A DNA stretch of 64,000 bases from Verrucomicrobiales bacterium. GTDB taxonomy: Bacteria; Verrucomicrobiota; Verrucomicrobiia; Limisphaerales; UBA11358. The position numbers and the translations under genes are program-made. A model generated the notes under the pieces. The model saw nothing but the letters and a program-made list of their open reading frames with translations. It searched no databases and had not been told where the DNA came from. This document shows positions 43,391-52,054 of this stretch, in pieces. How positions within the stretch are numbered: position 1 is the first letter of the stretch; each line of letters begins with the position of its first letter. The stretch is from NCBI GenBank assembly GCA_028712475.1, contig JAQTQB010000005.1:43408-107407 (forward strand), written 5' to 3'.

Positions 43391-46300
43391 TCAAAAGGAA
43401 TCAATTTTCCACGCGCCGTTCTCCTTAACAAATTCTATCGGAAATGTGATGGCTTGTCCGTCAATCGTTTGCTGGAAATAGTATTCAGCCGTGTCACCAT
43501 TAACAAAAACTGGCTTCAGTGTTCCGATCTGACCAATGGCGGAAATGGTGGTGACGGTGCCAAGATCAAGAAATGACTGCCGGTATTTGTCTGCCGAGAG
43601 GCTGGAGAAATCCGATGCCGCGCCCGGAATGTCGGCAGCGGCAATCCGGGCGGTCATGTGGTTCCAAACCGCCAGCACGGGGTCCGCATCTCCACTCGGA
43701 GCTGTGCATAGAATCACGCGGTTGTTGCCGGTGTCGGCAATATAGAACAGGTCGTTGGTGAAATTATTGACCGCAGCCACCGCATACGGCTGGCTTAAAT
43801 TGGTGGTCACTGCGTAGTCAATGCTGGACGCGGTGATGCTGAAAAACCCGCTTGCCGGAAATTTGAATTTCTGGATGCGGTTGTTGCCGGTGTCCGCCAC
43901 ATAAACGCCGCGCGTGCCAACGCAGAGGTTGACCGGCCCACTGAATTGTCCCAAGGCAGTGCCATTGGTTCCCGCCACGCCTTGAACCGAACTTCCCTGT
44001 GCCAGCACGATCCGGTTGTTCCCTGAATCCACGACATACAACGTGCCGACCGAATCATAGGTGAGTCCCTTGGGCGCATTGAACTGGCCGACGGCACTAC
44101 CCGCTGCGCCGAAGGAGGCGATGAATGCGCCGGTCGTCACTGCGAATTGCTGAATCCGATGGTTGCCGGAATCCGACACCGAAATGCTCTGACCGTCGGG
44201 AGTGACCGCGACATCGAACGGGGCATTGAACGCGCCGTTAGTTGTCCCGGAAATTCCGTTTGTAAATCCGATGACACCTCGAACACCAAAATTCGTGTCC
44301 GCCGCGAATGAACTGCTTGTCGGCTTCAATTTCCAAACCTGATTGCTGGCGCTCACGGCCACATAAACATTGCCCGCTGCGTCCACGTCAAAGCCCGACG
44401 GATTCGTGCCAACGCTGCTCAAGGAGCGGATGGTGCTGCCGTTGGTGCTGAATTCCGTAAGCGTCGCAGCGCTGCGCGACAAAACGTAAAGATTGGTGCC
44501 GATCAATTTTAAATCCACCGGGTCGGTGATGCTGGCGAACGTCGCCACCGTCGGCGGCATCTGCACATTGATGCGGATTGGCTGATTAATCTCGTCCAAG
44601 GCCACGGCGTTCCATCCGCCCACGCTGGAAAAGCGACCCGTGGTGGTCTGAATCGTAACGACCGGGAAGTATTCGCCGTTGGTCGCGTAAGCGTGGGTGA
44701 TGGAATTCAGATTGTTGGTGACAAAATCGGCAAGGCTGTCGCCGTTGAAATCATAAGCCGCCTGCTGAAAGGTTCCGGGCATATTGGTCTGAACCTGGAA
44801 CGTGACGGTCAACGGAGCAAAGCCGGCAATCGGCGTGGCCTGGAGTTGAACCGGATTGTTCAGGCTGCCATTAGCATTGGTGGTCGTAATGATGTTGATT
44901 GAAGCAACATTGGTGCTTCCGGTCAAATCTTCGAGCAAGGCTGTGATGATGTTGGTGCCCGCATCCAACGGCACGTTCAAGGCGTTAAAGTTTGTGCCAT
45001 TCACAAAGGCCAGAACGCCATTGACCGTGACTTGTTTCAGAGAACCAGCGGTGAAATTCCCGCTGACGTTCACCCTTGACGCGTTGAACGAGACATTGTT
45101 GACAGGATTGGTGATCGAAATGGTTGGCGGAACAGAATCCAGAACCAGAGTGGTCTCCTCCCATGTCTGATGCGCGTTTGACGGCAATCCCCGGAGTCCG
45201 ACCCAGACATCATGCGCTCCCTGATTTGTGCCGAGGCTTACCGTGAGATTGGATGACGTGTAGGCTGTCCACGTTGCCCCCGCAAAATTCGTGCTGTCCA
45301 CCAGCAACGCGAAGTAAGACGGCACGCCGCCCAAAACCGTGATGATGCCGCTGACGATGTTGGTGCTGACGTATTGATTCGCAAACGAGAAAGCAAAGCT
45401 GATTTTGTTCGGGTCGGCGCCGTTCAGATATTCCTGCAAATTATTGGTGCCATCACTGTCATAGTCACCGAGCGGATCCAAACCACCATGGCCGAAATAG
45501 TTTGTTTCCCAAGTCCCCAGCGCGCCGTCGGGATTCGCCAGATAATCCGGCAGGCCCGACCAATAGGTGCCGGCCGGATAACCGATGATGTTCGGATTGA
45601 AATTCGTTCCAGTGTAATATCCACCGCTGCCAATCTGCACGGAAACCATGTCATCCAGAAAATTCGCAAGGGGAACATTGGTTGGAAAATAGACCCAGAA
45701 TGATGTCAGCCCGGACGAATCCGTAGTCAAGGTCAGGCTCGTCTCCGCAATGCCATTCGTGGCCGTGGCAAGCTGGACTGCGCCACTGACAATTGCGACA
45801 GCTTCCTCGATGTTGGTCAGCGGTGCTGAACCGGCTCCGGTGAGTTGCACCGTCACCGGCAGAAACATCCCGGCGGCGTTCGTCTGATATTGACCGCCGG
45901 TTATCTGAAATTTCGGAATGACAATGGTTAGTTGCAAATTGGTTCCCACCCCCAGCCCGCCTTCAGGACTGGCGGCATAAAAGTTGATCGTGCAATTGGT
46001 GTTGACCGTATCAAAGGCATAGGCAAACACCTCGACCTCCCCGTTGGTGCCGGTATCAAGTCTTAAATCGGAGAATTCATTGTATTGAATAACCTCCGCA
46101 TCCGAATTGGTATCCAACCATAAATCACCTTGGGCAACCCGGACATAGACCGGTGCATTGGTCAACGGATTGCCCGCCAAATCGGTGACCCGAAATTGAA
46201 ATGATTGCGCCAGGAAAGGATTAGCGCAGGCCCCAGCCTGGATGATTTGAGGTTTGGGTTCAACGGGATTGTAGTAAACAGAGTAGGGCCGGGTATAGTC

Positions 46301-49300
46301 AGGCTCGTTTGATGAATATGTCGTCCCATATCCAAGCTCATAATCGCTTCCATCACCGGCACCCCAAGCATACAACTTTCCGTCTGATGCAAGCGCGACG
46401 GAAAAGTCATATCCAGCAACGACCATTGCAGCCTTGAACGCATTGGTCAATTGCAAAGGCAAATACGTCTCGCCACTGTAATCGCCTATCCCAAGTTTTC
46501 CATTATCTTTATCGCCCCAAGACCAAATGTTTCCTGCACTGTCCACGGCAAACGAATCATACCTCCCGCCCGCGACTTGGACGGCATTGCTCAAACCTAT
46601 CACTTGCACAGGCCGGTTAGTCTTATTGCCGCTCTGACCATTCCCCAATTCACCACTATAATTTGCTCCCCAGGCCCAGACTAACCCGTTGGACTGAACT
46701 GCTAGACTGTGATGTGCACCGGCAGCAACTTGGGCGATGTTGGCCAGATTTGTTACAAGAACTGGCGTTTGAGAATCGGTATAATTACCATTGCCTAACT
46801 CTCCAAAAAAATTGTAGCCCCAGGCTTTCACAGTTCCATCCGCTAAACGAACCAATACTTGATCAAATCCAGATGCCACTTGAACGGCGTTGGTGATCCC
46901 AGCAATCTGGGCTGGTGTTGAATTGCTGCTTCCTGTCCTATATATGTCTCCCCAGCCCCAGACAGTTCCATCAGATTCAACAACCAGTGAATTATAGCCT
47001 CCTGCCGCAATATCAACGACATTAGTAAGTCCAGGCACAGGCACAGGTGTTAGCTGATAGTCGCCAGAGGCGACAGTCCCAAGTTCACCAGACCAATTAT
47101 CGCCCCAGGCCCAAACAGTTCCATTTTCAGCAAGCGCCAACGCGTGATATTTCCCGGCAGAGATTTTAACAATGTTCGTCAGGCCTGGAATTTCTTTTGG
47201 GACGCTAGTTCCATAGTATTCAGAGGCGGCACCACCCAAAACTTCCCGACCCCAAGCCAAAACATGTCCATTGGGCTTCAGATAAAATGCAAAATCATCT
47301 CCAGCAGAAATCATCGGCATCTGTGAATGCTCCTTAAAAGTTGCTGTCACAGAATTTGTCCCGCTCCAAGCCGTCACGCTGACGAAACAATCGGCATTGG
47401 TTGTTAAAGGCAGAAACAGATAAACGGCAGCCATGCCATTTGAGTCGGTTCTTAAAGCAATGGAATTTGTCGTTGTTCCATTGGTGGATGTGGTTAATCC
47501 GCCTTGGGCGGCAGTGAAAATCAGCGGTGCGTTGGTCAAAATCACACCGTTGGTGCCGGTGATTTTCACGGCCAAGGCAATTGGGAGAAGACTGCCCGGC
47601 GCGCCGCATTGATAATTTCCTTTGTCAATTGTCAGTTGCGGCAAAACACCATTGTAATAATTTGTCGGATCGGTGCCGTTGAGATATTCGTTCAAGTTGC
47701 TCACGCCGTCGCCGTCGTAATCGCCACTGCCGGTTTGGGTATAATTGCCGAGCCATTTCCATTCCCACCAGTCGGGCAGGCCGTCGTAATCGGAATCTTC
47801 ATTCACGGGATAATGGTAGCCGGGGTCGGGTGTGTTGGTGTCGGCATAACCACCGTCCTGTGGCGCGTAGGTGGTCATTGTTCGGAGTTCCGCCAGCAGA
47901 TTGGGATTGATGTTCGTCGTGCCCGCATTCCGAAGACCGCTGGCATCGGTCAGATAATAACTGCCCGCACCGGCGCTTTGAAAGGGCAAGTCGCCTATGC
48001 CGATGGGATTGCCAAAATCATTATAATCGGGGTAGAACCCGTTGTAACTGCCGCTGAAGTGGCCGCCAGAATTGTCGAAGTTCATGTCAACCAAGATGCA
48101 GTTGGTCATGTTAAAACCCCAGCTTGTGGTTGATCCCTCTCCAACCAGCGAATAGTTATTCTCGTCGCCAGAATCGGGCGTGTTGGCAAAGGTCGCGTTC
48201 TGGGCGAAAAGGGACGCGCCCCCGTAGAGGCCCACCAGATTGACATTGGTGCGCACATTGGCCATCAGCACGTTTCTCAAATTCAGGGTCAGTGATTGAT
48301 AACTGCTGACCTTCACACCGTTCTGGCAGTTGGCCATCTGCACATTGGTCAAGTTCACGGTGCCCCCGCCCATGATGGCCGTTTGCGCAAAGGCAAAGCG
48401 CATGTTTTGCAGTGAACTCGTGCTGCCGGTGAGCCACAATGCATCAGCGGCGTAATAGCCGTCCGGGGCGCCCGTCGAGCCGCCGATGTTGTCGCCCACG
48501 CTGTTGTCGTCTTTCGCCGTGAATATCACCGGACGATCAGCCGCCGCATTTATTTTTATGGCCTGAATGCAAATATAAGCATTGTTCGTGTATTTAAGCA
48601 CCGCGCCACCCTCAAAGATATTGGTTCCCCAAAGGAGCACGTTGCCGCTGATGTAATAGGTCGTGTTGCTCTGAAAGGTGTAGTTGGTCTGGCTGCTGTT
48701 GACCGTTTGATAATCCAGCACGAAACCTTGCGTTGGCAACGCGGCTTTGGCCATGAGCATGGGCTTGGAGGCGTCGTTTTTCGCCAGCCGTTGCGGTGGC
48801 AACGCCAGATGCCGGGAAGCCGTATGCGAATTCTTGCCGGAACCCGACTGCATCGCCGTCAGGGGCAAAGCCGCCAACCCGTCAGCAATGGCGTCCACCG
48901 GCACTTCCTCCACCAGAAACTGCCGCCCGTCGAGTTGCTGCCATTGCTTGCCCACCAATGCCTTCGCATCCTTCGCCCCCGCCTCTTTCGCATTCTGCTC
49001 CAGCAAAAATGCCCGCCCCGGTATCATCTGCATCGTGCCGAAACCAAGGCTTTGATCGGTCAGGGCCAGCCCCGTCTGCTCCGGCAATTTTGTTGTTTGG
49101 ATGGTCGGCTGCGGAGGCGCAAAGAACTCGGTCAGGACTTGAAGCCGGGCAGTGCCGGGGTTCAGGCCGAATGATTCGGGTGTCGGCGGCTGTTGCCGCA
49201 GGATTATGTCCTGCTCAAACCCGGCCTTGGTGTAGGTGTAGCGCAAATCCGCCTTGAAATCCGTGAACGCATTTTGATAGACCACTTGGTTGTTGCCCAC

Positions 49301-49726
49301 CACGACCCCGATGGAATTTGTCAGTTCGGCGATCAACACGCTGTTCTTTCCGTCAAAAAAACTCAACCCGATGGGCCGGCTTTTCAGGTGCTGCCCGTCC
49401 GGGGTCACCAGTTCAATCTGGCCTTTATAAATGTCGCCGGGGAAATAGGCCTGATGCTGGCCGCTGGTCGCCGCCGCCGTGCCGTTGGGCAGAATATCAA
49501 TCCATTCCCTGGATTCCACCCATTGTCCATTCCGCTGGTGGTGCATTCCCGTCTCCAGTTCGGTGTAGCTGTGGATGCAATTGGTGCCATTCTCCACGGT
49601 GGTCTTGCTCACCACACGCCAGTCCGCCCCGCGCCCGGTGACAAAATAACCAGACTGCGCGCGGGCAAGGCCGGCAACGAGAACCGCAGCGAGCATGACA
49701 ACCGGCCAGTTCATTTTTGATTTCAT
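43391..49726 (-). CDS. Giant secreted/surface protein (2111 aa) with a beta-helix-like region, a 7-blade RCC1 propeller, Ca-binding D-x-D-x-D-G-type motifs, Ig-like segments, an NHL propeller and a C-terminal NTF2/SnoaL-like module
   Basis: The signal peptide is MKSKMNWPVVMLAAVLVAGLARAQ. There are seven RCC1-type repeats, for example AGKYHALALAENGTVWAWGDNWSGELG. DSDYDGLPDWWE, DYDGDGVSNLNEYLNGTDP and DYDSDGTNNLQEYLNGADP are present. There are five NHL-type repeats, for example GQFNAPKGLTYDSVGTLYVVDSGNNRIV. Confidence 0.85.
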   Translation of the reverse strand: MKSKMNWPVVMLAAVLVAGLARAQSGYFVTGRGADWRVVSKTTVENGTNCIHSYTELETGMHHQRNGQWVESREWIDILPNGTAAATSGQHQAYFPGDIYKGQIELVTPDGQHLKSRPIGLSFFDGKNSVLIAELTNSIGVVVGNNQVVYQNAFTDFKADLRYTYTKAGFEQDIILRQQPPTPESFGLNPGTARLQVLTEFFAPPQPTIQTTKLPEQTGLALTDQSLGFGTMQMIPGRAFLLEQNAKEAGAKDAKALVGKQWQQLDGRQFLVEEVPVDAIADGLAALPLTAMQSGSGKNSHTASRHLALPPQRLAKNDASKPMLMAKAALPTQGFVLDYQTVNSSQTNYTFQSNTTYYISGNVLLWGTNIFEGGAVLKYTNNAYICIQAIKINAAADRPVIFTAKDDNSVGDNIGGSTGAPDGYYAADALWLTGSTSSLQNMRFAFAQTAIMGGGTVNLTNVQMANCQNGVKVSSYQSLTLNLRNVLMANVRTNVNLVGLYGGASLFAQNATFANTPDSGDENNYSLVGEGSTTSWGFNMTNCILVDMNFDNSGGHFSGSYNGFYPDYNDFGNPIGIGDLPFQSAGAGSYYLTDASGLRNAGTTNINPNLLAELRTMTTYAPQDGGYADTNTPDPGYHYPVNEDSDYDGLPDWWEWKWLGNYTQTGSGDYDGDGVSNLNEYLNGTDPTNYYNGVLPQLTIDKGNYQCGAPGSLLPIALAVKITGTNGVILTNAPLIFTAAQGGLTTSTNGTTTNSIALRTDSNGMAAVYLFLPLTTNADCFVSVTAWSGTNSVTATFKEHSQMPMISAGDDFAFYLKPNGHVLAWGREVLGGAASEYYGTSVPKEIPGLTNIVKISAGKYHALALAENGTVWAWGDNWSGELGTVASGDYQLTPVPVPGLTNVVDIAAGGYNSLVVESDGTVWGWGDIYRTGSSNSTPAQIAGITNAVQVASGFDQVLVRLADGTVKAWGYNFFGELGNGNYTDSQTPVLVTNLANIAQVAAGAHHSLAVQSNGLVWAWGANYSGELGNGQSGNKTNRPVQVIGLSNAVQVAGGRYDSFAVDSAGNIWSWGDKDNGKLGIGDYSGETYLPLQLTNAFKAAMVVAGYDFSVALASDGKLYAWGAGDGSDYELGYGTTYSSNEPDYTRPYSVYYNPVEPKPQIIQAGACANPFLAQSFQFRVTDLAGNPLTNAPVYVRVAQGDLWLDTNSDAEVIQYNEFSDLRLDTGTNGEVEVFAYAFDTVNTNCTINFYAASPEGGLGVGTNLQLTIVIPKFQITGGQYQTNAAGMFLPVTVQLTGAGSAPLTNIEEAVAIVSGAVQLATATNGIAETSLTLTTDSSGLTSFWVYFPTNVPLANFLDDMVSVQIGSGGYYTGTNFNPNIIGYPAGTYWSGLPDYLANPDGALGTWETNYFGHGGLDPLGDYDSDGTNNLQEYLNGADPNKISFAFSFANQYVSTNIVSGIITVLGGVPSYFALLVDSTNFAGATWTAYTSSNLTVSLGTNQGAHDVWVGLRGLPSNAHQTWEETTLVLDSVPPTISITNPVNNVSFNASRVNVSGNFTAGSLKQVTVNGVLAFVNGTNFNALNVPLDAGTNIITALLEDLTGSTNVASINIITTTNANGSLNNPVQLQATPIAGFAPLTVTFQVQTNMPGTFQQAAYDFNGDSLADFVTNNLNSITHAYATNGEYFPVVTIQTTTGRFSSVGGWNAVALDEINQPIRINVQMPPTVATFASITDPVDLKLIGTNLYVLSRSAATLTEFSTNGSTIRSLSSVGTNPSGFDVDAAGNVYVAVSASNQVWKLKPTSSSFAADTNFGVRGVIGFTNGISGTTNGAFNAPFDVAVTPDGQSISVSDSGNHRIQQFAVTTGAFIASFGAAGSAVGQFNAPKGLTYDSVGTLYVVDSGNNRIVLAQGSSVQGVAGTNGTALGQFSGPVNLCVGTRGVYVADTGNNRIQKFKFPASGFFSITASSIDYAVTTNLSQPYAVAAVNNFTNDLFYIADTGNNRVILCTAPSGDADPVLAVWNHMTARIAAADIPGAASDFSSLSADKYRQSFLDLGTVTTISAIGQIGTLKPVFVNGDTAEYYFQQTIDGQAITFPIEFVKENGAWKIDSF

Positions 49727-49797: not shown

Positions 49798-49831
49798 CCC
49801 TCTCCCCCAACTCTGTTGGCGGAGAGGGGGG
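49798..49831. repeat. Palindromic element in the leader of the giant gene
   Basis: ccctctcc(ccc)-aactctgttggc-ggagaggg(ggg): 8-bp G/C-rich arms with a 15-nt interval between them. Confidence 0.6.
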
Positions 49832-49890
49832 AAACTTTCGCCGTCGCCCTGGCTGCTTAAGATTCATTTCCAGACGCCAGACCCCATTTT

Positions 49891-50604
49891 TCATTTCATC
49901 ACGCGGTCGGACGGGAGTTGAAACTCCAGGCGGACGCCCGCATTGGCGGAATCAGTGTGCGGCCATTCGGCATCGGCGGCAAACTGGATTTCGCGCCGCC
50001 GGGCAATGATGTCGTTCACGGCGGTTTCCAACTGCCGGCGGGCGGTGGTGGCATCGCCTTGTGCGCCGGTCTGGTCGCCTTGCACGCCTTGATAATCCAC
50101 CAGCGCCGTTTGCAGCGCGGTGATTTTGGCGGGCGTGATGCCGGGCAGCGCGTCGGTGGCGAGCTTGCTTAAAATATTTGCGGCGGTCTGCTCCAGCAAA
50201 CTGCGGCTGTTGTAAAACTGCTGGCCCACGCCGTAGTCCTTCAGCTTCACCGGCCCGGTGGCGTCGTATTTCTGCCGGGCGCGTTTCTGCACTTCCTGAA
50301 TCTTGTTCACGAGGTCATCCATCAATCCGCTTTCCTCGGCGGTGACGCCCTGTTTGCCGGTGGTTCCCTGCACGGCCTGCGCGCCCAGGTTGCGCGCGGC
50401 GGCAATGGCGGTCGTCAAGCCGGTGACTTTGGCGGCGTCAATTCCACCAACGGCGAGCGTGGCGGCATAGGCCGGTTTTTTGGCGGCGGCGGCAATTTCT
50501 TCGGCCCCGCTCAATTCATCGAGCAAGGATTGATTGACGATGCCCCGTTTGGGCGTGGTTTTCGGCGCAGGTGCAGGAGCGGGTGTCGGCGTGGGATCGG
50601 GCAT
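49891..50604 (-). CDS. Orphan hypothetical protein with a proline-rich N-terminus and a predicted helical body
   Basis: 237 aa beginning MPDPTPTPAPAPAPKTTPK..., then an Ala/Gln/Thr-rich region that is probably alpha-helical. It has no signal peptide and I recognise no family. The frame has good coding-like composition. Confidence 0.6.
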   Translation of the reverse strand: MPDPTPTPAPAPAPKTTPKRGIVNQSLLDELSGAEEIAAAAKKPAYAATLAVGGIDAAKVTGLTTAIAAARNLGAQAVQGTTGKQGVTAEESGLMDDLVNKIQEVQKRARQKYDATGPVKLKDYGVGQQFYNSRSLLEQTAANILSKLATDALPGITPAKITALQTALVDYQGVQGDQTGAQGDATTARRQLETAVNDIIARRREIQFAADAEWPHTDSANAGVRLEFQLPSDRVMK

Positions 50605-50610
50605 GATTAG

Positions 50611-50638
50611 TTTATGGTTGAGGGTTGATGGTTGAGAG
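50611..50638. repeat. Heptamer array (TTGAKGG family x4) directly upstream of the orphan gene start
   Basis: Reads tttatgg ttgaggg ttgatgg ttgagag, ending 7 nt from the ATG at 50604. Confidence 0.75.
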
Positions 50639-50715
50639 CATTGGCGAAAGCAAGGATTTTTAACCAGTCACGGCAGGCGGGCGGGCTGATTTGGCGTAAC
50701 TGGTTGAAAACAAGC

Positions 50716-50946
50716 TGACACGGCAGGAATTTAGCGTTTCCCGGCAGAAAATCAGGGCTTCCCGGCTGGAAAATAAGGCCGCACGGCTGGTGGCCAGCAT
50801 CACCCGGCAGAAAGACAGCATCACCCGGCTGGAAAACAGGATTGCCCGGCAACCGGACGGTGTTTCCCGGCGACTTTTTATCTCCGCCCGGCTGACGGAC
50901 AGGTTTCTCCGGTAGGAAAACATTGCCGGACGGCTGGCGGCTGGTG
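50716..50946. repeat. Eleven-unit, exactly phased 21-bp repeat array (consensus about ttyCCCGGCwGraaaacAGg)
   Basis: The core CGG(C/T) starts at 50721, 50742, 50763, 50784, 50805, 50826, 50847, 50868, 50889, 50910 and 50931. That is ten successive intervals of exactly 21 nt. Confidence 0.9.
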
Positions 50947-51012
50947 CCCCAGACATCGGCAGTGCCGGGAACCGGCTTGACTTTAGGCAATGAAAACTTC
51001 CCGCGTCTAACA

Positions 51013-51057
51013 GACGCAAGAGTGGCGACGCAAGAGTGGCGACGCAAGAGTGGCGAC
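51013..51057. repeat. 14-bp perfect tandem repeat (gacgcaagagtggc) x3.2
   Basis: Direct reading gives gacgcaagagtggc gacgcaagagtggc gacgcaagagtggc gac. It is preceded by the small palindrome gcgtc-taaca-gacgc. Confidence 0.92.
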
Positions 51058-51310
51058 AATTTCCTTGATTGGTGAAACTAAATTCATTGCCGGACAGGGT
51101 TTTAGTTTTGCACGGATGCGAAGTCAACAATCTTTTCCATTTATTTTAGAAATTCATAATCGTGGCAGCGGATGTGAGTCCGCTCGGATTTCCCAAATAA
51201 TGGAGCTGCTTGCGTCGGCTACCACAGGGTTTTGAAAAAGCTTCGTTTGCTTTTTTATTTCCAATCCGCCGTCGGTTTGGGCAGCATTCAGCAAATTTCG
51301 GAAGCAAATC

Positions 51311-52054
51311 ATGTATCAAGGGAAAAAAATTGTCGTCGTCATGCCCGCCTATAACGCGGCGCAGACTGTCACCAAAACCGTGGATGAAGTCCACCAGCAG
51401 CAGATCGTGGATAAAATCATCCTCGTGGATGACCGCAGCCGCGATGACACGGTGCAGGTGGCGTCGTCGTTGCTAGGCGTGTGCGTCCATGTCCACGAGA
51501 AAAACACCGGCTACGGCGGCAACCAGAAGACGTGCTACCGGCTTGCGCTCGAGGCCGGTGCGGACATCGTCATCATGGTCCACCCGGATTATCAATACAC
51601 GCCCAAGCTGATTCCGGCGCTGGCCTGCATGATTGCGAACGACCTGCATCCGTGCGTGCTGGCCAGCCGCATTTTGGGCGGGTATTCGCTGCAAGGCGGG
51701 ATGCCGGGCTGGAAATATGTGGCGAACCGTTTTCTCACGCTGGCGGAAAATATTCTGCTGGGCGCAAAACTTTCGGAATACCACACGGGTTACCGGGCGT
51801 TTTCCAAGGAGGTTTTGCAGAAGCTTGACCTGTCAAAAAACTCCGACGATTTCGTGTTCGACAACCAGATGCTTGCGCAGATCCTCTGGCACGGCTTTAC
51901 GATCGGCGAAGTGAGCTGCCCGACGAAATACTTCAAGGAAGCGTCGTCCATCAATTTCCGGCGCAGCGTGAAATACGGCTTCGGCTGCTTGAACGTCGGG
52001 CTGAAATTCCGGCTGGCAAAGATGGGGCTGTGCCGGTCGGATCTGTTTCCCTGA
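51311..52054 (+). CDS. Family 2 glycosyltransferase (polyprenyl-phosphate sugar synthase-like)
   Basis: 247 aa with the GT-A signature VVMPAYNAAQTV, ILVDDRSRDDT and VMVHPDYQY (DxD-like). It is short and soluble-type, like Dpm1/GtrB relatives. Confidence 0.87.
   Translation: MYQGKKIVVVMPAYNAAQTVTKTVDEVHQQQIVDKIILVDDRSRDDTVQVASSLLGVCVHVHEKNTGYGGNQKTCYRLALEAGADIVIMVHPDYQYTPKLIPALACMIANDLHPCVLASRILGGYSLQGGMPGWKYVANRFLTLAENILLGAKLSEYHTGYRAFSKEVLQKLDLSKNSDDFVFDNQMLAQILWHGFTIGEVSCPTKYFKEASSINFRRSVKYGFGCLNVGLKFRLAKMGLCRSDLFP

Follow-up and report, generated by a model that had tools for sequence, protein, structure and literature searches.

In the partition centromeres of plasmids (R1 parC with ParR, pSK41 parC, F sopC with SopB) tandem repeats head an operon, the adaptor encoded by this operon binds them cooperatively in a curved or helical complex, and this nucleoprotein complex also autoregulates the promoter. 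Classical curved promoters carry 3-6 A-tracts with a phasing of ~10.5 base pairs (bp) directly upstream of the -35 element. Iterons are direct repeats of 17-22 bp which lie on the same face of the helix, and a shift by half a turn abolishes the cooperativity of binding (PMC4980987). In type III toxin-antitoxin systems the parts follow in the order promoter, tandem nucleotide repeats, palindrome and protein gene, and each repeat array is specific to the gene next to it (PMC3401426). Here we analyse an array of 21-nucleotide (nt) units in a stretch of 64,000 nt from a Verrucomicrobiales bacterium (contig JAQTQB010000005.1), in the following called the window, where it stands upstream of a gene for a protein of 237 amino acids (aa). 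Array and gene are an undescribed module of Verrucomicrobiota, akin to known phased repeat arrays paired with an adjacent gene. The array matches no known family, as iterons, par centromeres, ToxI and CsrB each fail defining tests. No equivalent element is described in Rfam or in the literature that was searched, which agrees with the first-pass annotation of this DNA, where no described element of this structure was known.

The array lies in an intergenic gap of 706 bp (50605-51310), bordered on one side by the minus-strand gene for the 237-aa protein (49891-50604, ATG at 50604) and on the other side by a plus-strand gene for a family-2 glycosyltransferase (51311-52054). When the sequence is printed in a 21-nt register from 50716, CGG occupies columns 6-8 in 11 out of 11 units (50721, 50742 ... 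50931), giving ten intervals of exactly 21 nt. Thus the phase and the size of the gap that the first-pass annotation had reported are confirmed by the register print and the open reading frames (ORFs). Its eleven units at 50716-50946 stand as well, but they are not the whole array, only the best-conserved part of it: the full array comprises 14 in-phase units at 50692-50985 on the minus strand, as seen from register prints, pattern enrichment, the orthologous locus of a relative and the family census given below. The gene downstream of the array is on the minus strand, and this is the sense strand, on which the core of the unit reads TTYCWGCCGGG followed by ~10 variable bases. The pattern CCCGGC-N15-CCCGGC with at most one mismatch has 11 matches in the window, 8 of them at the array (expected 1.3; not more than 6 in 100 shuffles), and Tandem Repeats Finder reports period-21 pieces at 50721-50772 and 50784-50850.

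Of the 14 units the first (TAAAGTCAAGCCGG) and the terminal one (TGTTTTCAACCAGTTACGCCA) are conserved, and one unit is degenerate. The terminal unit (50692-50712, minus strand) is the best conserved of all, with a cross-clade consensus of TTTTCAAC-N3-TTACGC; among the relatives introduced in the next paragraph it is kept in L002, L003, L005, L006/L061, L047 and L051, and it is recognisable as ATTTCAACGAAC in the clade with ACGAACGG units. It fits 8 of the 9 positions of WATCAANNNNTTR, which we take to be the consensus of the integration host factor (IHF); this is a lead only. The first unit, TAAAGTCAAGCCGGTTCCCGG (50965-50985, minus strand), has its AAAGTCAAGCCG part kept in relatives, as the alignment of the window with L002 shows, and when the frames of L003 and L049 are translated it reappears there as KVKP.

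For the comparison with relatives 46 loci from species-representative genomes and 80 from metagenomes were fetched; the window's own locus is labelled WIN, and the loci or contigs of relatives are labelled L001 to L128. The species-representative loci are mostly metagenome-assembled genomes (MAGs) of Verrucomicrobiota (Limisphaerales, Pedosphaera, Chthoniobacterales). Some MAGs labelled Actinomycetota, Bifidobacteriaceae, Klebsiella or Bifidobacterium (L010, L013, L020, L029) carry the verrucomicrobial gene and array as well; these labels are probably wrong or the contigs mis-binned. The orthologous locus is L002, a contig of 1.4 kb with 12 CCGG at an exact spacing of 21 nt followed by a homologue of the 237-aa gene, and in the alignment the two arrays differ by exactly one unit. 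In the census an array was counted if a 168-nt stretch within 900 nt upstream of the gene had a self-match of at least 0.45 at a lag of 21, 42 or 63 nt. Such a periodic stretch was found in 69 of the 92 loci with at least 500 nt of upstream sequence, compared to 2 of 77 control stretches of DNA, so that the co-occurrence with the orphan gene, which the first-pass annotation had raised as a question, holds in most of these loci. When whole loci are scanned, periodic segments are nearly confined to positions -250 to -800 relative to the gene.

The array therefore exists as an element whose period and position are conserved throughout the family and which evolves by whole units. The self-match, as a mean of 53 distinct arrays, amounts to 0.56 at lag 21, 0.53 at lag 42 and 0.51 at lag 63, compared to ~0.25 at other lags. 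Of the 538 unit spacings determined, 88% measure exactly 21 nt; another 6% deviate by one nucleotide (20 or 22 nt), and 2% correspond to two or three periods (42 or 63 nt). The number of units per array ranges from 6 to 19 with a median of 11. The consensus of the unit varies from clade to clade (TTYCWGCCGGG, AATTTCACGAACGG, TTTTCAATATCGACAC, GCGATAAAATCACCC, TTCTGCGGNCATATC, CCTTAAYTTTC-N-ACCGC), and within the unit conservation has the character of a motif: the information per column, determined for 45 arrays, forms contiguous blocks in 15 of them. Because the period of 21 nt is kept in 53 arrays whose unit sequences have diverged beyond recognition, selection on the spacing is strongly supported, as had been supposed from the window alone.

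If the array were a neutral minisatellite which hitch-hikes upstream of the gene and whose period is held only by unequal crossing-over, one would understand that arrays gain or lose units in steps of 21 or 42 nt in five close pairs, and also that contigs frequently break at the array. Furthermore, it diverges faster than its flanks in near-identical pairs: in L015/L017 and L014/L087 leader and gene show no or hardly any differences, while the arrays differ by 4-9% plus whole units. Nevertheless, we regard this explanation as very unlikely, since the same place, orientation and period are kept in family members down to ~40% protein identity, the units have conserved core blocks and the first and terminal units are conserved. 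The self-match hardly decays with distance, which argues for selection on a consensus and against recent local duplication. The first-pass annotation had expected a neutral minisatellite to lack a conserved phase in close relatives; in fact the phase is conserved in the relatives, although the number of units varies.

Annotation pipelines call the array as a protein. The frame in question (50607-51059, minus strand) has 150 codons with a TTG start and is a called gene (P0001) as is its counterpart in L002 (P0002), the single relative that the databases hold, with 49% identity; a second frame of 156 aa at 50660-51130 on the same strand is also open and also starts with TTG. Both frames had been noted in the first-pass annotation, where a translated peptide with the heptad repeat xF[LQ]PGxx, named 'PG heptad' after its proline and glycine, was one of three readings. 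It is true that the frame is open over 150 codons in WIN and 183 in L002, and in a set of 22 arrays at least one forward frame is free of stops in 14, compared to 6 on the reverse strand. However, 8 of the 22 have no open forward frame, and in most relatives the PG frame has no ATG; it is interrupted by stops in L005, L052, L056 and L059 and shifted in register in L003. Differences between close pairs sum to 121/72/259 over the three codon positions of the adjacent gene, whereas the arrays show no preferred position in 9 of 9 close pairs (for example 5/6/8, 22/24/21 and 10/16/13). The pair WIN and L002 is too diverged for its counts by codon position or of synonymous and non-synonymous changes to be decisive, and it was the closer pairs which settled the question. 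A signal at lag 3 is absent, and column information is 3-periodic in just 1 of the 45 arrays. Slips of the register are by one nucleotide and never by three, as 34 spacings are 20 or 22 nt and none is 18 or 24 nt.

The codons themselves also speak against a peptide. All 23 units of WIN and L002 use CCG for the supposed proline, compared to 52% of the proline codons in the genes of the window, and the third base of the codon that follows takes all four values. The unit-to-unit differences which the first-pass annotation had taken as synonymous are thus found at positions outside a core that is constrained at the nucleotide level. With no Pfam match, only one database relative and a second frame that is equally open, a heptad-repeat peptide is highly improbable. 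The array is not translated, and judging from its sequence the frame at 50607-51059 should be considered a wrong call of the pipeline. In the arrays of L016 (671-972) and L009 (3689-3843) the most protein-like frame has TGA in the place of the TGG, TGC or TTA of sister units. A motif at the nucleotide level accounts for this without difficulty, and to read it as recoding would be misleading.

The 237-aa protein, the ORF of which defines the array-bearing family, has no assigned function. A word-indexed search gave 172 homologues, and an exhaustive search found 749 representatives of clusters at 50% identity, nearly all of them stand-alone proteins of 235-260 aa. Neither this protein nor the two array ORFs belong to a family in Pfam, NCBIfam, PADLOC or PHROGs. 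A confident AlphaFold model (pLDDT, the predicted local distance difference test, 88.5) is all-helical with two helices of ~57 residues. Foldseek against the PDB and a search of the PDB sequences with the family profile gave no significant match, the best one being the helical sensor domain of McpS with a template modelling (TM) score of 0.5 and an E-value of 0.07. Conserved motifs of the family are MxDPxPxP at the N-terminus and the basic QKRARQKY and RRREIQF, while the protein as a whole is about neutral in charge when K/R and D/E are counted by hand from the translation. No feature identifies it as a nucleic-acid binder and none excludes it.

A perfect inverted copy of the array core, TTTCTGCCGGG, is found inside this gene (50269-50279, plus strand) in the codons for ARQK of the QKRARQKY motif, and L002 to L004 have this match, too. 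The idea derived from it, that the unit is antisense to the gene, was rejected as it does not apply family-wide (mean score 6.9 antisense compared to 7.7 sense), and the inverted core is probably a coincidence.

What the array does has to be judged from its form, and we tentatively prefer to see in it a functional, non-coding and phase-locked element at the DNA level, in which binding sites on the same face of the helix are combined with phased A/T tracts, that is curved DNA, to control the module. We infer in this reading the action as DNA and not as RNA, the binding by a protein, either the module's own or a nucleoid protein, and the effect on transcription. A unit of 21 bp corresponds to two helical turns with an A/T-rich patch and a G+C-rich core. 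In an array of 6-19 units the same surface would recur on one side of the helix, and small intrinsic bends would add up in phase. Such a curved scaffold would take up a cooperatively bound protein, which would set the transcription of the module gene and perhaps also of the gene behind it. This is compatible with one of the proposals of the first-pass annotation, a DNA-binding array on one helix face, and it is the proposal that we prefer. Its link to sigma-54, however, has to be abandoned. By direct reading no GG-N10-GC promoter is found between array and ATG, the only candidate TGGTTAAAAATCCTTGC having GG and GC 2 nt too far apart, and the -24/-12 spacing fails in the equivalent stretches of L002, L059 and L063, too.

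In silico, the arrays share with phased A-tract DNA the in-phase A/T patches, a large predicted planar bend and a sequence that drifts while the phase is kept. In a calculation with wedge values, the predicted bend is 13.6° per unit, compared to 4.7° for gene DNA and to 9.6° for column-permuted arrays, a control which is partly circular because the permutation breaks A-tracts; WIN reaches 22° per unit, and 33 of the 53 arrays fall in the top quartile of predicted bend. The arrays differ from classical A-tract DNA in having one tract per 21 bp over 130-400 bp, a conserved G+C-rich core in each unit and a variable distance to the promoter.

A census of sigma-70 consensus matches over the loci gave too few sites to place the promoter in general. 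It speaks for action as DNA that in L009, L107 and L123 the only good forward sigma-70-like sites are 20-60 nt before the ATG, downstream of the array. On the same side count the lack of a signal for RNA structure, a homology of module copies that begins inside the array, and the arrangement in the large ACGAACGG clade. This clade has a conserved block CTTGCCA-N17-TTTTAT between array and gene, ~110 nt before the ATG and followed by a small covarying hairpin; insertions of ~200 nt between array and block are tolerated, and the upstream gene ends within 40 nt of the array. In L082, L086 and L073 the insertion is ~210 nt long and bounded by the inverted repeats GACAATAGCCCAGCC ... GGCTGGGCTATTGTC, so that it looks like a miniature inverted-repeat element, and unrelated insertions are present at the same spot in L087/L095 and L017.

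Besides the partly circular bend control, several points weigh against action as DNA. All promoter calls are matches to a consensus. In the WIN clade the sole conserved promoter-like element is upstream of the array and the 104 nt between array and ATG hold no convincing promoter, so that the array is probably transcribed in this clade. The sense strand has more C than G in 45 of the 53 arrays, as in leader and gene, which fits a transcribed unstructured RNA. The AlphaFold model, Foldseek and the profile search revealed no DNA-binding fold in the module protein, and we know of no factor that binds the array. Finally, paralogous modules of one genome carry different unit sequences (L014 and L044), which argues against a single host factor.

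The promoter-like element of the WIN clade is TTGACT-N17-TAAAAC in the window (51099-51127, minus strand), a sigma-70-like candidate that is missed by a strict consensus scan, its -10 element having no T at position 6; as a promoter it is inferred from sequence. WIN, L002, L004, L005, L050, L051, L052 and L059 have it in the form TTGAC-N17/18-TAAAAAC at a distance of 470-610 nt upstream of the ATG, and the sequence conservation of the clade ends there at its 5' limit. From such an element the array could be transcribed as part of a long 5' leader, and its 11-19 evenly spaced motifs could be occupied by numerous copies of a protein, which may be the module's own product, in order to autoregulate translation or stability or to sequester the protein. 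The logic would be that of ToxI/ToxN, TRAP and CsrB with another protein and another unit. We consider this, the main rival of the DNA reading, possible, but rather less than probable. Apart from the element itself, it is favoured by the orientation of the array relative to the gene, which is fixed at every locus, by the C>G and A>T skew of the sense strand, which agrees with that of the leader, by a stretch from array to ATG that is about as conserved as the gene, by an array type which tracks the adjacent gene and not the genome, and by the two basic motifs of the protein. On the other hand, the other clades have good promoter candidates downstream of the array, and none can be assigned to its upstream side; no structure is predicted within the unit or across the array, and the fold of the minus-strand leader has an unremarkable z-score of -1.8. 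Units that are merely ~56% alike, a spacing which is an exact multiple of the DNA helical repeat without an obvious meaning for RNA, and a protein of about neutral charge without a known RNA-binding fold do not fit well either.

Among the RNA systems the one with the same order of parts, in the WIN clade, is ToxI/toxN (toxIN, cptIN, tenpIN), where the array is also upstream of the protein gene. But ToxI consists of 5.5 near-identical copies of a 36-nt pseudoknot, while here 6-19 copies of degenerate 21-nt units are found, there is no terminator-like U-tract, and in other clades the promoter seems to be downstream of the array. Furthermore, the protein is not an endoribonuclease of the ToxN, CptN or TenpN type, having neither a PADLOC match nor a significant match in the PDB. 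Many evenly spread short motifs which bind the copies or subunits of one protein are a feature of CsrB/RsmZ and of the TRAP-binding trp leader, and in the even spread of motifs the array is like them. A plus-strand sponge RNA of the CsrB type, as the first-pass annotation had suggested, is nevertheless not supported. The conserved orientation of the array is that of the minus-strand gene and thus opposite to such an RNA, GGA is not enriched on the plus strand (9 compared to 6.3±2.1 in shuffles), motifs in hairpin loops are missing, and the spacing is strictly 21 nt. Rfam gave nothing relevant at the gathering score for the window or at E<=5 for 50550-51350. The unremarkable z-score agrees with this, though only the minus-strand leader, in gene sense, was folded. 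A search for a CsrA-like protein covered the 64 kb of the window and gave no match (best E-value 0.08). A role at the RNA level on the minus (sense) strand is possible.

The array forms the 5' part of a module of ~1.3 kb, which moves as a whole with leader and gene and is placed before variable large secreted proteins. The homology between loci begins at or inside the array and stops ~80 nt past the stop codon of the gene. L015/L017 (98% identity) and L087/L095 (94%) share only this segment, their flanks being unrelated. L015 and L017 are contigs of one MAG (CAVTWB010000017/18), each with a copy of the module near the contig end; either this is a recent duplication or mobility, or strains are mixed in the bin. 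It might be asked whether the module is mobile or recombines and the array has its role in such DNA transactions, be it as an iteron-like or centromere-like element, as end sites for a transposase or recombinase, or as a recombination hotspot which moves the module before new cargo. The near-identical copies in unrelated flanks, twice within one MAG, would fit, as would a homology that starts inside the array, arrays that change by whole units and, in near-identical pairs, faster than any other part, the variable cargo downstream, and a period within the size range of iterons (PMC4980987). We nevertheless think it unlikely. No integrase, transposase, Rep or partition nucleoside triphosphatase (NTPase) is encoded beside the annotated loci, the two copies in one MAG may be the mixture of strains just mentioned, and the 3' boundary of the module in the window shows no copy of the unit. 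The protein has no plasmid or phage relatives, as tblastn gave no match in 72,556 plasmids nor in phages. A scan of viral contigs for GCCGGG at a spacing of 21 nt yielded 70 matches, all of which were rejected as unrelated perfect simple repeats or coding repeats.

Like the iterons of Rep plasmids (RK2, F, P1, R6K, pPS10), the array consists of direct repeats of 21 bp on the same helix face beside the gene of a possible cognate protein, and its sequence diverges along with this gene. It differs from them by 6-19 degenerate instead of 3-7 near-identical units, and by an adjacent protein which is an all-helical bundle according to the model, Pfam and the PDB fold and profile searches and not a winged-helix Rep. 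DnaA boxes or an unwinding element were not identified, and the setting is chromosomal without plasmid relatives, the contig of the window having 174,660 bp with housekeeping-type genes. As for partition centromeres, the proteins scanned include no NTPase of the ParA, ParM or TubZ type and no ribbon-helix-helix or helix-turn-helix adaptor, and the genes behind the module code for secreted proteins.

A further possibility is a new cognate pair of protein and repeat. The helical protein of ~240 aa would polymerise with one protomer per unit on its own array, as DNA or as mRNA leader, paralogues would have co-evolved their own units, and the filament would gate the giant secreted or RHS-type genes behind. 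This is a doubtful proposal.

In the position of the cargo the window has a gene for a secreted protein of 2111 aa (43391-49726, minus strand) with a signal peptide and, according to Pfam, RCC1 and NHL repeats. The cargo gene varies by locus but usually codes for a large protein with a signal peptide, the domains being RCC1, Kelch, LamG, RHS, Sel1 and PEGA. Examples are an RHS-repeat protein in L040, LamG/HYR/PKD in L099 and Kelch in L123, and further cases are L004, L007 and L031. It may be that the module stands at the head of loci which encode surface or toxin-like proteins. In the spacer that separates the 237-aa gene from the giant gene, a G+C-rich hairpin CCCCCTCTCC...GGGGGAGAGGG at ~49800-49835 (minus strand) resembles a dispersed palindrome of the repetitive extragenic palindromic (REP) kind. 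The Logan contig L001 ends exactly at this hairpin. Its ends were rejected as transcript ends because they coincide with repeats.

The gap contains additional repeats. With the promoter-like element on one side and the 21-bp array on the other, a perfect 14-bp tandem repeat of 3.2 copies is found at 51013-51057, for which Tandem Repeats Finder gives 100% matches and a score of 90; on the plus strand it reads GACGCAAGAGTGGC. At the equivalent site L002 carries two copies which have diverged, and L049 and L005 appear to carry CGCC-N-TCTCGCG repeats which resemble it. Its copy number alters the frame relation of an upstream ATG (51087) to the open frames, which is relevant only if anything is translated. 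On the other side of the array the repeat finder detects an inverted repeat with 19-nt arms that are 84% complementary (50657-50710), in which the terminal unit pairs with CGTGACTGGTTAAAAA. It belongs to the minimum-free-energy fold, but it has no U-tract after it and is not called by a terminator scan; a hairpin or terminator after the array is not conserved beyond the closest relatives when other clades are compared. Directly 5' of the ATG are CA-rich heptanucleotide repeats, CTCAACC/ATCAACC (50610-50636, minus strand; Tandem Repeats Finder, period 7/14). This motif also precedes the ATG of the family gene in L047, L049, L063, L103 and L105. As a Shine-Dalgarno sequence is absent before the ATG at 50604, the CA-rich stretch may be an unstructured region for translation initiation. 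A hidden sub-period of 7 nt, which would join the 7-, 14- and 21-nt repeats of the region, was looked for by self-match at different lags and is absent.

To our knowledge few genetic tools are available for Verrucomicrobiota and almost no cis-regulatory elements are known from this phylum. Here a single odd repeat becomes a family-wide element, with 53 distinct arrays and a protein family of ~750 clusters at 50% identity, and it shows in a clean natural case how selection acts on spacing and not on sequence. Since pipelines take the array for a protein, it also draws attention to an annotation error of a systematic kind. For the biology of the Verrucomicrobiota the element points to an uncharacterised module at the start of loci which encode secreted proteins of very large size. 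Should the protein bind its own array, the two would make up a new nucleoprotein regulatory system, and if moreover protein and repeat are a cognate pair, they would represent a regulatory principle without a described bacterial precedent.

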